Part shown: piece after piece, positions 2,800 to 63,931 of the stretch
How positions within the stretch are numbered: the stretch's first letter is position 1
Layout of the letters: each line of letters begins with the position of its first letter
Assembly: GCA_951406725.2 (NCBI GenBank)
Contig: OX597820.1
Coordinates: forward strand, 96,348,001 to 96,412,000
DNA: 64,000 nt
Reading direction: 5' to 3'
DNA from: Octopus vulgaris
Taxonomy: Eukaryota
Notes under the pieces: generated by a model
What the model was told of the DNA's origin: nothing
Database searches by the model: none
The model's input: the letters and a program-made list of their open reading frames with translations, nothing else
Made by a program: the position numbers and the translations under genes

Positions 2800-4175
2800 T
2801 GTTCACTAATTCCAGCTTATAATATTTCATTGTTATTAAGTGTATATTTATTAAAACCATAATACCTATTTTACTTAGAGTATTTAGGGTTTTGGTCACC
2901 TACAAATTTATCCAAATTATTCTTATTACAGTAGTTATTGTTTGGTCCGTAATATTTCAACTTTTGTTTATAACCGACTTTCATAAGTGCCAAGTTATAA
3001 TAATCTACTGCATTATCAAAAATTTCCTCATTTGACGACAGGTAAGATATCCTTTTTGAAATATTCGAGACCAGAGAAATTGTGACAGATCTAGGATGAT
3101 TACATCTAACATTTATATACCCTAGGTTGGTGTTAGGCTTATGGTAGGGTTTGTGCTTGTCAGTGACAAGGTTTAGGTTCACATCTAGAAAGTTAACTGA
3201 ACTATGTTCGTTTTCAATAGTAATGGATAGACCAATGTTTTTAAAGAATTTATGAAATTTCTTTTTATATGATTCCAATTTTCTATCAAATAGGTTTCTA
3301 AGAGTAAAAAGTGCGCCATCCCTATACAAACCCGCCCCAAGTTCAGAAAATCCTTACTTAAGTTGAGTGGCTGTGTGGTAAGTAGCTTGCTAACCAACCA
3401 CATGGTTCCGGGTTCAGTCCCACTGCGTGGCATCTTGGGCAAGTGTCTTCTGCTATAGCCCCGGGCCGACCAAAGCCTTGTGAGTGGATTTGGTAGACGG
3501 AAACTGAAAGAAGCCTGTCGTATATATGTATATATATATGTGTGTATGTGTTTGTGTGTCTGTGTTTGTCCCCCTAGCATTGCTTGACAACTGATGCTTG
3601 TGTATTTACGTCCCCGTCACTTAGCAGTTCGGCAAACGAGACCGATAGAATATAAGTACTGGGCTTACCAAGAATAAGTCCAGGGGTCGATTTGCTAGAC
3701 TAAAGGCGGTGCTCCAGCACGGCCGCAGTCAAATGACTGAAACAAGTAAAAGAGTAAAAGAGTAAAGAGTAATACCCACAAAATCGGTGACCTGTGACGA
3801 ATCAGCTGATCCCATTGTTATATCAAAGCTATCGTTAGTATACTTTCTAACCCAATATTGGTTGACAAATTTAATAATTGTTTTTTTTTGGCACCTAAGA
3901 TAATGTTAATTTCATTCATATTTAGGTTAGAGTTCTTTCTAGCGAACAAAAGGGCTTTGTTTAGTAATATAGGGTTAACTGAAGAATAATAATTATCTAT
4001 ATCAATTCGTAAAATCTTGGTTCTATTTTTGCTTTCAATTATATTAAACCGGTGTATTACTTCGTGTGTTCGACCAAAGTTACAACTTTAATGTTTTCCT
4101 AACAATCGGCATGAATTTATCAACCATAGTCTTGATTCCTTTACCTAGGTCCGATTTATCTTGGCAAATTAATCT
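2800..4175 (-). mobile_element. Decayed PLE reverse transcriptase interrupted by a SINE
   Basis: Minus strand RLICQDKSDLGK, IDNYYSSV, DSFDITMGSADSSQVTDFVG, LYRDG, NFLDV, YINVRCNHP. Confidence 0.8.
3365..3772 (+). mobile_element. tRNA-derived SINE family A
   Basis: A-box tggctgtgtgg, B-box ggttcagtcc, internal (TA/TG)n, (aaagagta)n tail; multicopy in the window. Confidence 0.9.
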
Positions 4176-54540: not shown

Positions 54541-54905
54541 GAAGGCGCATGACTCACTGGTTAGAGTGTAGAGCTTACTATCGTGACGTTGTGAGTTCGA
54601 TTCTCGGACCGGGCTGCGTGTTGTGTTCTTGAGCAAGACACTTTATTTCACGTTCCTCCAATTCACACAGCTGTAGAAATCAGTTGCAACATCACAGCTG
54701 CCAAGCTGTATCGGCCTCTGTCGTTCCCTTGGATAGCATCGGTGGCGTGGAGAGGGGAGGCTGGTATACACGGGCAACTGCTGGTCTTCCATAAAATCAA
54801 CCTTAGGTTGTGCGTTCACCGATGAGGCGACTTTCCGCTCAGACTTGTACTCCGGAGGGGAACCTCTTTGGTGTACCCATGGCCATTCGCGACTGACGGA
54901 GTCGA
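54541..54905 (+). mobile_element. SINE family B; a related diverged copy lies at ~5525-5890 (-)
   Basis: Matches 9425-9759. Confidence 0.85.
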
Positions 54906-55398: not shown

Positions 55399-56635
55399 CT
55401 ATATTCTGTTACGTCATAGAAAGACAAAATGCACTAAACAGAACAGGAGGATACACATGAGATAAAAGGGTTGCTGGAGAGGTCACAAATGTGTGACAAA
55501 AGATTTCCAGACGATGGTCATAAGATAAAATAAGAACAATAATAGACGAGTGAAGAACGAATGTATAGTGCGTGGCAAGAAAACAAAAAAATGACCATCC
55601 CGAAATATAACAAACTCATTGATATTCAAGAACTATGATAATTTGCCTAATTTTTTCATGTGCGTTATGAAGAGTATAATTTCATTTGCACCGCTCAGAT
55701 AGCAGTTCAGATAACTCTAAAAGGCCGTTTTTAAATTACCCAAAAGCAAATGATTTTAATAGCATCTTCAGGCCCCAGTACTTTATTCTTCCAGCTCTAG
55801 ACCTTGAATTATAACAGCTCATTCTTCGAACATGTTCTGAAATAGCTGCACTACGAACATTAAACGCAGTCAAATGAAGGAAGATAAGTCACACTGAAAG
55901 AAAAAAAGTTTTGAGCAGTTGACAATGATGAATCTGTACACATGGAATTAATTCATCTCGATTCTCTAAAGACCTTTAACATAAAGCATGTAATTTATCA
56001 CAAAACGTGTAAAGATGATTCAAAACTGTAACTTCATTTACAAATTCGTCGACACAAAACTCAAGCTGGTGTTGGAACAGCGTCAAACACTTTTATCAGT
56101 AAAATCATCGCGAAATAGTTTTACAAAGCTTGAATTTTGTTCTACCATAATTGTCGCTATATCAATTACAATTAATGTCACATATAATTTTAGTTACTGC
56201 ATGGAAAGAAAAACTACTTTGCTAACTTAGAAGCCCATTATAGATACAATTTGCATTTGCGCCAAGTTTTAAATGTCTTAATTCATAAAGGATGACAAAA
56301 TTGGCAAGTCTCATCACTTGCAACTCTCATTCAGACTACAAGAAAAGTTTTACCATTAATAATAGAATATGTTAGATTCTTTATTCTTTGGAAATTATAT
56401 TTCTCACCACTTTTCTCTCGTATTTGGTTTCTAACGTAGTTTATAATATCTGTACATGTTCTACGAGGTGGAAGAACGTACGTACGCTTAGGCAGTTTCT
56501 TCATTTCATTTCCATATAAGACATGTATGTGGATAACCTACAAAACTTATCTTGCTTTCGTTTCGAAATTTTATTCTCTTATTCTCTAGTTGATTATATA
56601 TATATATATATATATATACATACATATACATATAC

Positions 56636-56696
<61 letters not shown>

Positions 56697-56824
56697 AGTA
56701 AAGTGTGAAAAAACGACAGAAGGCTTAAATGTTAAAAAATATATATATTTGTGTCAAAATGTCTGGAGAATATTGGAAAAATTTTTTTTCCTTTCCTTAA
56801 AATGACATAATTTTAAAATTTTTA

Positions 56825-56864
56825 AAGAAATTACCGGTTTCGCGTGTAGCTTTTCAAATTTCTT
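56825..56864 (-). ncRNA. Mirror copy of the U3-A8 hammerhead-like motif in the left arm
   Basis: Reverse complement of 61549-61588. Confidence 0.7.
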
Positions 56865-56999
56865 GTGACGTTATGTTTATATTGCATGGAATTATCGTTG
56901 TTTTTACTTCCAGGAGATTTCTAAATAAGGGGAGGTAGTGAGTGATTTTTTCCGGTGTAGGGGAGATAATCGCTTAAAAATTTTTTTCCCATTTCCTTG

Positions 57000-59244
57000 T
57001 TAATTTCTCTGTGTCAGTATGTTCGGATGGTTGAGTCTGGGTTTGTACTTTTCAATGAAGAATGTTTCCTTGTTCAGTCTCATTTGTGTTGATGATCCGA
57101 AAGCACATTGGTAAAATGGGAAGATTAAAAATTGTGGCAGTAGTTGCTTTGCGCATTTCTCAATGTGCTCACTAAAAGGTATCATTCTATATTCTGGGAA
57201 TGCAATCTGTTGTCGATGCAGTGTGCATCTGCGCCTGAGTGATAGTCCCGTGGAACCCACGTAGTCTTGGTGGCAGCCCGAGCATTTAATAACATAAATT
57301 ATGTTTTCAGAGGCACAAGTAAAGTTAGATTTGATCTTAAATTTCTGTCCTTCTTTAAAGAAGAATTCTGATCCTTCCAATAGGTTAGGACATGTTGCAC
57401 AGTTCGATCTACCACATTTTTATACTTTTGCATCCGTAATTTTAGAAGACAATTTTGCCTTTGTGAGAATCTTTTTAAGTGATTTAGGCTGTTTGTAGCT
57501 TTTAATGATTTGGTGTATGTTTAGAATTTCCTTTAATTTTGGGTTTTTATGAAGTATTGGTAAATTCTGGGTGATGATGGTGAAGGCTTCTTTGTTTCTG
57601 GGGTTGTATGTAGATATGTAAGGTAGTATTTTCGGGGAAGGTGTGTTGTTGTGTTGAACTTTTCTTAAAGTTTCTATGTTGATTTCTGTTGCACGTCTGA
57701 TCCCATCCTCTATGAGTTGAGCTGGGTAATGTCTGTCAATTAGGGTGTTTTTGAGTTCTTGCAGTCTAAAGTTCCTGGTATTTTGTTCTGACACTATTGT
57801 GCATATCCTTCTTGCAAGGTTGAAGGGGATGTTTGTTTTAGTGTGTCTTGGGTGGCATGAATTAAAAGAAGGTATTGTTTGGCGTCTGTGGCTTTGTAAA
57901 AAATGTCTGTTTCTATTTTAAGGTTAATTTTTTTAATTAGTATATCCAAGAACGGGAGCTCCTTTTGGTTGTATTCCATTGTGAACTGTATATTTGGGTT
58001 TATGCTGTTCAATAGGTTTTTAAATTTTAGGAGTTTATCTATGTTTTCATTCCAGAGAATGAAACAATCGTCTAGGAATCGTTTCCAATTCTCTTTTATG
58101 TATTGAGAGAGGGAGTTTCCAAAGATTGATAGAGATTCCTGGTAAATGATTATTTCCATGTATCCCATTGTTAAGTTCGCAATGACTGGTGCTGCCCTTG
58201 TACCCATAGCAATTCCGGATTTTTGACGGTAAAATGTATTGTCAAACATGAAGTGGTTATTGTGTAGGATGAATTCAATTGATTTAGTAATGAATTCCTT
58301 ACTGATCCTTTTTGGTATTTCTTCCGGAAATTGGTCTAACCAGAATTGTATTGCCTCCAGTCCATAATTATGAGGTATACTGGTATACAAGTTGACTACA
58401 TCAAATGAAACCAGGATTGTTTCTTCCTTGGTTTTTTTTGGAAGGTGGTTTAACATATCTAAGTCATCTCTGATATGGCTATCGATATGTTTAAGGAAGG
58501 GTTTCAAGAGGATGTCCATAAGTAGACTTAGTCTGTGTGTTTCACAGGTTGGGCCAGCTACAATGGGTCGTAGTTTTAGGTCCCCGGATTAGGTGTGTGT
58601 ATGTATGTCTTTGGTGATTTTTTAATGGTTTCATTTATAATTTGACTTTTATGAATTTTTGGCAGACCATAGAAAAGGCTAGGTTTGCATTTGAAGTTTG
58701 TTAGGAAATCAATCTCTTTCTCTTTGGTTGTTAGTTCCTTTTCATGGGTTTTAATTAGTGAAGATAGAGTTTTCATTATTTTTTGTGGGGTGTAGTTGGT
58801 AATTTTTTCATAATGTAGGTCGTCATCAAGCAAGGAAATTACAAGATTTCTGTAGTATGATGTATCCATTATTACAACTGCATTTCCCTTGTCTGCTTCC
58901 TTAATGGTTATATCCTCATCATTTTGAAGTTCTATCAGTTCTTTCCATTGTGTAGTGTTAAAATTTGGGTTAGCTTTCTGTTTATGTATAGTATGGTAGG
59001 GGAAGTTCTCAATGTGGTTACAGAATTCGTCAAGATCTTTATTTCTTCCTCTGTGTGGGATGTGTTCACTTTTGTTCTTGACTAGTGATTCATCTTCAGT
59101 ATTGAAACTGTTTGATGCTTCTGCTAGTCTTAATTTTCTGCAAAATTCTGTTATATTATCCTTGAGTTCATTTAGGTTTGCTCTGCGTGGAGTTGGTGTA
59201 AATTTGAGCCCTTTTGCGAGGATGTCAATTTTTATGTTAGAAAG
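57000..59244 (-). pseudogene. PLE RT + GIY-YIG polyprotein, left arm, two frameshifts and one premature stop
   Basis: ORFs 58576-59406, 57794-58519, 57420-57794 and 57000-57380 reproduce the right-arm protein. The spacer adds the upstream PLE motif LAKGLKFTPTP. Confidence 0.93.
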
Positions 59245-59245
59245 A

Positions 59246-61412
59246 AATGAACTCAAGGATAATATAACAGAATTTTGCAGAAAATTAAGACTAGCAGAAG
59301 CATCAAACAGTTTCAATACTGAAGATGAATCACTTGTCAAGAACAAAAGTGAACACATCCCACACAGAGGAAGAAATAAAGATCTTGACGAATTCTGTAA
59401 CCACATTGAGAACTTCCCCTACCATACTATACATAAACAGAAAGCTAACCCAAATTTTAACACTACACAATGGAAAGAACTGATAGAACTCCAAAATGAT
59501 GAAGATATAACCATTAAGGAAGCGGACAAGGGAAATGCAGTTGTAATAATGGATACATCATACTACAGAAATCTTGTAATTTCCTTGCTTGATGAAGACC
59601 TACATTATGAAAAAATTACCAACTACACCCCACAAAAAATAATGAAAACTCTATCTTCACTAATTAAAACCCACGAAAAGGAACTGACAACCAAAGAGAT
59701 TGATTTCCTAACAAACTTTAAATGCAAACCTAGCCTTTTCTATGGTCTGCCAAAAATTCATAAAAGTCAAATTATAAATGAAACCATTAAAAAATCACCA
59801 AAGACATACATACACACACCTAATCCGGGGACCTAAAACTACGACCCATTGTAGCTGGCCCAACCTGTGAAACACACAGACTAAGTCTACTTATGGACAT
59901 CCTCTTGAAACCCTTCCTTAAACATATCGATAGCCATATCAGAGATGACTTAGATATGTTAAACCACCTTCCAAAAAAACCAAGGAAGAAACAATCCTGG
60001 TTTCATTTGATGTAGTCAACTTGTATACCAGTATACCTCATAATTATGGACTGGAGGCAATACAATTCTGGTTAGACCAATTTCCGGAAGAAATACCAAA
60101 AAGGATCAGTAAGGAATTCATTACTAAATCAATTGAATTCATCCTACACAATAACCACTTCATGTTTGACAATACATTTTACCGTCAAAAATCCGGAATT
60201 GCTATGGGTACAAGGGCAGCACCAGTCATTGCGAACTTAACAATGGGATACATGGAAATAATCATTTACCAGGAATCTCTATCAATCTTTGGAAACTCCC
60301 TCTCTCAATACATAAAAGAGAATTGGAAACGATTCCTAGACGATTGTTTCATTCTCTGGAATGAAAACATAGATAAACTCCTAAAATTTAAAAACCTATT
60401 GAACAGCATAAACCCAAATATACAGTTCACAATGGAATACAACCAAAAGGAGCTCCCGTTCTTGGATATACTAATTAAAAAAATTAACCTTAAAATAGAA
60501 ACAGACATTTTTTACAAAGCCACAGACGCCAAACAATACCTTCTTTTTAATTCATGCCACCCAAGACACACTAAAACAAACATCCCCTTCAACCTTGCAA
60601 GAAGGATATGCACAATAGTGTCAGAACAAAATACCAGGAACTTTAGACTGCAAGAACTCAAAAACACCCTAATTGACAGACATTACCCAGCTCAACTCAT
60701 AGAGGATGGGATCAGACGTGCAACAGAAATCAACATAGAAACTTTAAGAAAAGTTCAACACAACAACACACCTTCCCCGAAAATACTACCTTACATATCT
60801 ACATACAACCCCAGAAACAAAGAAGCCTTCACCATCATCACCCAGAATTTACCAATACTTCATAAAAACCCAAAATTAAAGGAAATTCTAAACATACACC
60901 AAATCATTAAAAGCTACAAACAGCCTAAATCACTTAAAAAGATTCTCACAAAGGCAAAATTGTCTTCTAAAATTACGGATGCAAAAGTAAAAAAATGTGG
61001 TAGATCGAACTGTGCAACATGTCCTAACCTATTGGAAGGATCAGAATTCTTCTTTAAAGAAGGACAGAAATTTAAGATCAAATCTAACTTTACTTGTGCC
61101 TCTGAAAACATAATTTATGTTATTAAATGCTCGGGCTGCCACCAAGACTACGTGGGTTCCACGGGACTATCACTCAGGCGCAGATGCACACTGCATCGAC
61201 AACAGATTGCATTCCCAGAATATAGAATGATACCTTTTAGTGAGCACATTGAGAAATGCGCAAAGCAACTACTGCCACAATTTTTAATCTTCCCATTTTA
61301 CCAATGTGCTTTCGGATCATCAACACAAATGAGACTGAACAAGGAAACATTCTTCATTGAAAAGTACAAACCCAGACTCAACCATCCGAACATACTGACA
61401 CAGAGAAATTAA
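59246..61412 (+). pseudogene. PLE reverse transcriptase + GIY-YIG endonuclease polyprotein, right arm, two frameshifts (~59830, ~59975)
   Basis: Motifs: KEADKGNAVV, FYGLPKIHK, RPIV, SFDVVNLYTSIP, QKSGIAMGT, RFLDD, FLDI, SCHP, Cys linker CGRSNCATC, GIY-YIG-like IIYVIKC..DYVGST..RCTLH. ORFs 59012-59836 and 60021-61412. Confidence 0.93.
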
Positions 61413-61548
61413 CAAGGAAATGGGAAAAAAAATTTTTAAGCGATTATCTCCCCTACACCGGAAAAAATCACTCACTACCTCCCCTTATTTAGAAATCTCC
61501 TGGAAGTAAAAACAACGATAATTCCATGCAATATAAACATAACGTCAC

Positions 61549-61588
61549 AAGAAATTTGAAAAGCTACACGCGAAACCGGTAATTTCTT
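61549..61588 (+). ncRNA. Minimal type I hammerhead-like ribozyme, U3-A8 core variant, in PLE 3' UTR
   Basis: aagaaat / TTGAAAA / GC-tacac-GC / GAAACCGGTA / atttctt: 7-bp stem I, palindromic stem III (ACCGGT), GUA cleavage triplet. Confidence 0.7.
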
Positions 61589-62602
61589 TAAAAATTTTAA
61601 AATTATGTCATTTTAAGGAAAGGAAAAAAAATTTTTCCAATATTCTCCAGACATTTTGACACAAATATATATATTTTTTAACATTTAAGCCTTCTGTCGT
61701 TTTTTCACACTTTACTATTTTCTTATATATTCACCCACGTGATTTACCAAACAAACTTTCTTATCTATATATATATATATATACATATATACATATATAC
61801 ATATATATATAGTCGTCATTAATTTTATGCTTAAAATTCCTTTAACTCTAACTTTTTAGTCGGTGGGGTCACTCTCACTTCTACACCTATTTTATTAACA
61901 CTATCACTAACGAATCAAAGTAATTCCAGAGTAACCACACATGCTGCATGCACTACAATCTAAATTTTCTGAGTTCAACAATTATATTCTTTTTGCTTAA
62001 GTCCACTTCTTGTGATCAACAGTCTGGTAGATCAGATTTTTCAATATTTTTCGAAGTTTCGTACTTGCACGTGCAACATCAAGTGAAATCACATTAGTAA
62101 GATAATTATTTTAAAATAATTCAACTCTCTTTGTAATTTGTTCTCACTATTTCTTACTTCTCTTGGTCGTTCTAATCTTACCCAAGCGCTATATCATTTA
62201 AAATTGTAAATTCTCACTTGAACATCATTGAAATAAGTATTGTCCAGCGTAATACCATTGCAATTTCAAGTTAGAGAAGTCTAAATGATAAGCCATAGCA
62301 AGTAACAACCGTTGTACAAGCGGCTATGTACACACAGTTACCCTCATATTAAAAGACAACCCAAGGTCCATAAAATGCTGATTATGTCAATAAGTTGTGC
62401 ATGTACAACCAAAGTTGTATAGAGAGAAACAGCTAACCAAGCAATCTGAAACACGTGACATACAGGGCATCGAATGAAAAATAAAATATTAATCATCATC
62501 ACAATTAATATATTTAGTGCTGCTTTTTGAGTGAGTTTGAGGTGAATCAGAAGACCCTTCGTCATATATATTTAGCGTTATATACATGTATATATTTTAC
62601 GT

Positions 62603-63389: not shown

Positions 63390-63931
63390 ATACTAAGTAA
63401 TTAAGGGTTTAGCAACGAATTGCCTCACCAACACACCGAATTTAGAAATAGCAGTCAAAGAGATATAGCTATTCCTTCTACTAAAAGGGGGATCTCAGTA
63501 AAAACACAGCACTTGAAAGGCAAACACAGACAGGTAAGAAAAGAAAGAATGAAATGACGGCAATCTATCATGCAATTTTAAGTTACCTACGGACGTACGT
63601 TTCGAGATCAAACTTGATCTCGAAACGTACGTCCGTAGGTAACTTAAAATTGCATGATAGATTGCCGTCATTTCATTCTTTCTTTCTTACCTGTCTGTGT
63701 TTGCCTTTCAAGTGCTGTGTTTTTACTGAGATCCCCCTTTTAGTAGAAGGAATAGCTATATCTCTTTGACTGCTATTTCTAAATTCGGTGTGTTGGTGAG
63801 GCAATTCGTTGCTAAACCCTTAATTACTTAGTATTACTTAAATTTTCCTCGAATGGGGCTTTTACATGCCGAAATCTACTTGGTGTAATTGATAATTATC
63901 CCTAATTAATTAATTTCACCCTTTATTATTA

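Follow-up and report, generated by a model that had tools for sequence, protein, structure and literature searches.

Why do the two arms of a palindrome differ mainly beside its centre, and there mainly at silent codon positions? This question is raised by a locus of Octopus vulgaris in the window, i.e. the whole 64-kb stretch of DNA that was analysed, which contains no N gaps. By pairwise alignment of the arms, positions 56692-61721 form an inverted repeat with a 71-nt centre (56692-61765 counting the tail), and this is a head-to-head pair of 5'-truncated Penelope-like retroelements inserted in (TA)n, with the following parts:

56692-59245, minus strand: left arm, a 5'-truncated Penelope-like copy that starts at position 1437 of the ~3990-nt unit, has no tail and is a mosaic of an inner B1 and an outer A part
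59245-61721, plus strand: right arm, a 5'-truncated copy that starts at unit position 1509 and is subfamily A at 80/80 diagnostic sites
59174-59244, minus strand: unpaired centre of 71 nt, additional 5' sequence of the left arm
61731-61765, plus strand: PLE tail of 35 nt, the first bases of the next unit, absent from the other end
56594-56691, no strand: target microsatellite (TA)n/(CATA)n on the left, read from the sequence
61766-61811, no strand: target microsatellite (TA)n/(CATA)n on the right, likewise

The arms diverge outward and both run into (TA)n, with a tail only on the right arm; a check for target-site duplication found both insertion ends within the microsatellite. The right arm codes for RT and C-terminal GIY-YIG pieces, its frame being broken near 59830 and 59973. 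The arms meet with a 1-nt overlap, and a genome-wide search for a second copy of this junction, as a possible source locus would have it, returned a single match, the locus itself. A read fold-back artefact is ruled out, because the symmetry ends at the element termini, the flanks are unlike and the tail stands at one side only. A 7-nt motif precedes both truncation points, but it was rejected as a signal since it is not enriched at 139 arm ends. By eye, a separate palindrome of ~400 bp was seen at 63440-63837 (centre near 63618) next to (TA)n, as well as a tRNA-like head, probably of a SINE, at 54545-54620.

The coding pieces match RVT_1 (E=3.7e-6) and GIY-YIG (E=0.029) in Pfam, both below the curated cut-offs, and a PDB sequence search gave no RT match. 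The translations contain the RT motifs GIAMG and RFLDD, the EN motif IIYVIKCSGC and the N-terminal motifs GLKF and ADKG, which match the GxKF/Y and DKG motifs of EN+ Penelope-like elements as named in the text available of PMC8557442. A CCHH motif is present in the GIY-YIG domain (CxxC at aa 394-397, then H416 and H433 of the 487-aa piece), and a CX4CxxC linker (CGRSNCATC at aa 350) lies upstream of the C-terminal EN. The same source lists a CX2-5CxxC linker before a C-terminal EN, together with microsatellite bias, among the features of Neptune/Nematis, and by its linker motif only the element appears Neptune-like. The Naiad clade is ruled out, as its EN is N-terminal and the one found here C-terminal. 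Layouts of 127 regions show that 5' truncation, partial tandems (pLTR) and an adjacent inverted copy all occur in the family, and a 26-nt word of the element's 3' part recurs exactly at 1112 places of the 2.8-Gb genome. Rfam gave no hammerhead ribozyme at E<=1 in 56500-61900, where both arms lack the 5' 1.4 kb of the unit, and its matches at the locus were microsatellite noise only.

A sequence-only reading of the locus had listed eight inner substitutions between the arms, and the alignment returned exactly these, at right-arm positions 59335, 59491, 59503, 59524, 59596, 59674, 59686 and 59719. All lie at codon position 3, seven of them synonymous and one an E/D exchange, and the accompanying in-frame 6-bp indel is indeed there, as a tandem duplication in the left arm (58720-58725). 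For the outer ~2 kb the reading was right about a single substitution, located at 60990 (57422 in the left arm, where it makes a stop), but it had counted two homopolymer indels where there are three (59973, 60544 and 61425). The frameshift near 59830 was correctly assigned to both arms, which have a short G run in common. The chance of eight out of eight substitutions at third positions is P=1.5e-4, that of at least seven synonymous ones among eight P=7e-5 to 6e-4, and that of at least eight out of nine falling within the inner 19% of the arm P=1.4e-5; the inner clustering and the silent bias are far above chance, and a uniform spread without codon bias was not seen.

Six of the eight inner substitutions are alleles of the B1 subfamily that are carried by the left arm, and 59335 is a common polymorphism of the family. 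At 59674 the odd allele sits on the right arm and was found elsewhere in only two, much older copies. The right arm also combines its 59335 allele with a 59463 allele, a pair seen in 1 of 44 copies that bear this 59335 allele; it might come from a rare source, a reversion or a small patch.

The subfamilies were derived from family copies in 127, later 152, regions of the same genome. As these regions were picked by similarity and by allele-specific words, they are not a random sample of a family with 1112 exact matches. The copies comprise a young group, A, and a number of older ones. B1 was defined by three outer sites only (11 copies), and its comparison with 64 A copies gave 80 diagnostic sites. 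The right arm has the A allele at every one of them, whereas in the left arm an unbroken run of six sites (right-arm 59491-59719) has B1 alleles and the remaining 74 have A alleles. The mixture is confined to the left arm, whose relevant features are these:

58693-59083, minus strand: foreign tract of the left arm, with the B1-diagnostic alleles 58927, 58915, 58894, 58822, 58732 and 58693, plus 59083
58592-58692, minus strand: interval of the B1-to-A switch, 101 nt in which no diagnostic site separates A from B1 (59720-59820 in the right arm)
58720-58725, minus strand: 6-bp in-frame tandem duplication within the foreign tract, 1 match in the entire genome

Beyond its own locus the duplication was found nowhere in the genome, and none of the assembled B1 copies has it. 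No substitution separates the left arm from two B1 copies over unit positions 1572-2084 (129 copies compared), and the mismatches of this arm to the best single parent decrease from 7 to 0 with a patch and to 1 with a single switch; the closed patch that leaves 0 residual mismatches spans unit 1599-1983. Towards the centre, the foreign tract may reach the 5' end of the left arm or may stop before 59111. This end is ambiguous because the nearest informative site, 59307, is polymorphic in B1, the left arm having the allele of A and of 2/10 B1 copies, so that a single switch and a closed patch fit equally well.

Trees of 49 rows, comprising 14 of the 64 A copies drawn at random and all other copies that span the region, gave conflicting results for the inner and the outer segment. 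In the outer segment the left and right arms are sisters inside A, whereas in the inner segment a topology that forces both arms inside A is rejected with p-AU 4e-8 (the inner bootstrap not being fully settled). The proposal that the inner arms come from two different source lineages is thus borne out by the conflict between the trees and by the B1 identity over 1572-2084. The six B1 alleles are entirely absent from 82 of the 86 A-backbone copies, three have one of them, and only the left arm has all six. Likewise, reading the loci of 61 B-word and 15 B1-word places yielded no other copy with a B1 inner and an A outer part, and C3:121076909, considered as a second such mosaic, was rejected because it has only the single 59719 allele in common. 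A mosaic scan that tested 223 of 243 segments returned four "clean" mosaics by its cut-off, of which only the left arm of the palindrome has well-separated parents and a break inside the ORF; the same scan missed C1:206444564.

The silent character of the differences can be traced to the subfamilies themselves. A and B1 are distinguished by 52 sites in this ORF part, of which 34 are third positions and 37 are synonymous. The private changes in A copies are evenly spread over third, second and first positions (37/32/40) and only 25 of 109 are synonymous, in agreement with the earlier argument that decay would not favour silent sites. Because subfamily divergence has this bias (37/52 synonymous) and decay does not (25/109), the bias was imported with the tract and results from selection that acted on the source lineages rather than here. 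Post-insertion decay of the ordinary kind, or sequencing noise, could account for 59674, 60990 and the homopolymer indels, but private changes are even over codon positions and the six tract alleles are exactly those of B1. For the six-site block it is refuted, and as an explanation of the arm differences we find it scarcely credible.

Two further sites bear on the origin of the outer arms:

61506, plus strand: allele confined to the two arms, in 2/107 sites read, both of them here (left equivalent about 56907)
59826-59829, plus strand: short G run (frameshift) in both arms, in 7/149 sites read, 5 of them in other loci

The short G run may be a recurrent homopolymer error. The outer arms share one origin, as both carry the 61506 allele that was seen in no other copy read. 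Each arm has 1-2 private substitutions, and to judge from this the palindrome insertion looks very young. These shared marks could also be obtained from two insertions, namely an older B1 copy followed by a head-to-head A copy, if arm-to-arm conversion later overwrote the outer 2 kb of the left arm; such a course would explain both the private 61506 allele and the common short G run. However, the 1-nt-overlap junction lacks a microsatellite, as in most of the 77 dimers from single events. The tail obeys the one-ended rule, A alleles continue to the terminus of the left arm, and the B1 tract is without any private substitution. We therefore think that two insertions are very improbable.

A further possibility is that the mosaic was made in the computer, if a paralog path or mis-mapped reads were put into the inner left arm during correction or polishing. 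Homopolymer lengths that differ among arms and copies indicate an imperfect consensus, and the tract has about the length of one short-read fragment. Among the public contig pieces listed, none spans the junction, contains the 6-bp duplication or has the right-arm 59674 allele, and in one contig run all contigs over 59674 carry the family allele; as contigs drop rare variants and may come from other individuals, these absences weigh neither way. Against an artefact, mis-mapped reads would mostly be of A type, whereas the alleles found constitute one exact and rare haplotype with a duplication that would have no source in any assembled B1 copy. Moreover, only 1 of 86 A-backbone copies has the block, the junction is unique, and the window is gap-free. 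Family alleles of both types were seen in four public contig runs, whose individuals may differ from the assembled animal, and independent read sets contain the B alleles as well, in pieces that show 0 other letters. Lineages that are recombinant at many loci additionally point to a biological process in this family, and altogether we regard an assembly artefact as improbable.

How unusual the locus is can be judged from the other members of the family. In the 152 regions there are 92 head-to-head junctions; 69 of 71 scorable dimers have a tail at exactly one end (21 not scorable), and the dimer spacers are long, the median being 1484 nt. Of the 77 head-to-head pairs whose arms overlap by at least 150 nt, 62 show at most one difference at family-polymorphic sites and 24 have private alleles common to both arms, which indicates that dimer arms normally come from one source. 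In C17:6530306 (L168), an older dimer, the tail-less short arm has two A-type alleles less than 20 nt from its inner end. C1:72978798 was rejected as a two-source dimer, as both of its arms belong to the same lineage despite 8 polymorphic differences between them.

Junctions can also recur. Two of 90 distinct junctions were found at two loci each, with private alleles in common, so that inner arm sequence can travel with a junction. One pair consists of C1:72978232-72981670 (L224) and C2:118266954-118270400 (L246), whose unit 1112/3405 junction was likely inherited through RNA, since private alleles of the short arm are shared and the flanks are unrelated. The other pair, C1:206440050-206445520 (L233) and C2:37909808-37915270 (L236), has the same junction, shared private alleles and 470 nt of common downstream flank, for which 3' transduction or a mis-join is possible. 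In the former of these two loci, the tail-less arm C1:206444564 changes subfamily between unit positions 3337 and 3385, but it may be a mis-join because it lies between two assembly N gaps and shares the 470-nt flank with its sister locus.

Recombination is also visible on the level of lineages. Up to unit position 1968, 13 informative sites group A with B1, whereas from position 2085 on 10 of 14 informative sites group B1 with another lineage. The relationship of A, B1 and B1b hence changes within unit 1503-2085 (window about 59240-59821), which means that one multi-copy lineage is recombinant. As this signal is carried by many loci, it cannot be a local assembly error, and judged by these sites recombination between subfamilies is real in this Penelope family. 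The break overlaps the switch interval of the left arm, but the interval is wide and the overlap may be due to chance.

The reading that we favour over the others, at roughly even odds, is that a B1 RNA acted as second template in the making of the tail-less arm, be it here or in an unseen source dimer. Each target end would prime its own cDNA at the 3' end of the element, yielding one with and one without a tail, and both primings would normally draw on RNA from one source. At this locus, synthesis of the tail-less cDNA would have used A RNA for about 1.9 kb, moved to B1 RNA inside the 101-nt identical stretch, slipped by 6 nt and ended at unit position 1437, after which it would have joined the other cDNA, ending at 1509, by the 1-nt overlap. 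In a variant of this scheme, junction and inner arm would have been inherited through the RNA of a source dimer with a B1 arm, of which none was found in this assembly. The one-ended tail points to two separately primed cDNAs, and these fit better than a fold-back of one cDNA, from which one would expect the same end twice. In the twin priming of L1, a part of a single RNA becomes inverted, without duplication of the 3' end. According to the sections available of PMC11167929, Poseidon_Ac starts RT at two sites in vitro and extends both strands of the target, and the one-ended tails of the octopus family match this behaviour. Arkhipova et al. propose self-priming for the inversions in the corresponding part of PMC3846280, but the one-ended tail and the median 1.5-kb spacer found here would favour two primings. 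Any estimate for the second template, in our case a balanced one, has to include that it would need B1 RNA and that B1 copies, with a mean of 2.6 private changes per kb against 0.8 in A, are the older ones on average. B1 activity may nevertheless overlap A activity, as some B1 copies have only 0-1 private changes per kb.

Ectopic gene conversion matches the sequence about as well as a second template. Both arms would then have been inserted as A from one template, and a later break near the centre would have been repaired from a genomic B1 copy over a tract of 0.39-0.51 kb. The tract length and the place beside the palindrome centre suit break repair. The closed patch at unit 1599-1983 leaves no residual mismatch, B1 RNA is not required, and the 59335/59463 pair of the right arm could be a small arm-to-arm patch. 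A precedent may be the solo B1 copy C10:93018622 (L256), in which ~150 nt of the 3' UTR come from another lineage and look like a closed patch. On the other hand, B1 donors are few, with 13 of 15 B1-word matches (left arm included) compared with 122 A matches and the adjacent arm, an objection that is tempered by the fact that conversion from an A donor would be nearly invisible. Furthermore, the insertion looks very young, leaving little time, and 82 of 86 A-backbone copies are devoid of any of the six alleles. We therefore see gene conversion as possible, but rather unlikely.

The mosaic is well supported in the assembly, and its mechanism lies between two ordinary processes and a model with two RNAs. 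The general form of this model would be that each insertion involves two RNAs, one per arm, which are held by a protein dimer and as a rule share their source locus, though on occasion they belong to different subfamilies, with the RT switching between them; we put this forward only tentatively and with more doubt than confidence. If it is true, a non-viral retroelement would undergo retrovirus-like recombination, and the young and dominant A lineage or its B1 sister would be explained as a recombinant broken in the same 0.6-kb interval. The origin of Penelope-like head-to-head inversions is stated as an open question in the relevant passages of PMC8557442 and PMC3846280. A dimer has a built-in control for such studies, as one arm shows the expected state of the other, and with hundreds of young dimers with marked subfamilies in this family the fold-back, one-RNA and two-RNA models become countably distinct. 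If a two-source arm were verified, it would give direct evidence from the genome for a second template, and a route to new subfamilies. The mosaic would be a rare snapshot of Penelope recombination if it is the product of a second template, and a clean but ordinary example if it is due to gene conversion.

Judged from the portions available of the cited papers, the element class and the palindrome form are already known, as are template switching in LINE-1 (PMC13174262) and recombinant subfamilies in Alu (PMC3672193). In the openly accessible literature that was searched, no Penelope dimer whose arms belong to two subfamilies was found described. With canonical EN+ Penelope-like insertions, as far as Craig et al. 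2021 (PMC8557442) and Arkhipova et al. 2013 (PMC3846280) present them in the sections available, the locus shares the head-to-head inverted copy, 5' truncation and partial tandems, and also the one-ended 30-40-bp tail, the (TA)n targets, the CX2-5CxxC linker and the C-terminal GIY-YIG. Arms of unlike subfamilies, or a subfamily switch within an arm, are found here and are undescribed in those sections.

The TPRT of Poseidon_Ac (Frangieh et al. 2024, PMC11167929, in the portion available) is similar in that both strands are cut and extended and targets are AT-rich; a protein dimer is predicted, and two adjacent RT start sites bound the tail. Poseidon_Ac belongs to another clade, however, and that portion contains neither a two-RNA test nor template switching. 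In LINE-1 chimeras, according to the text available of PMC13174262, the RT likewise changes over to another RNA, or the products of two primings at the same break become joined, and the partners tend to be active simultaneously; unlike here, the RNAs that are combined (U6, Alu, mRNA) are not related to each other and lack long homology where they meet. Chimeric Alu subfamilies, as described in the available part of PMC3672193, differ in being DNA-level SINE recombinants that are inferred from consensus sequences without a paired arm as internal control, but they resemble the A/B1 lineages in that new subfamilies arise by recombination of older ones.
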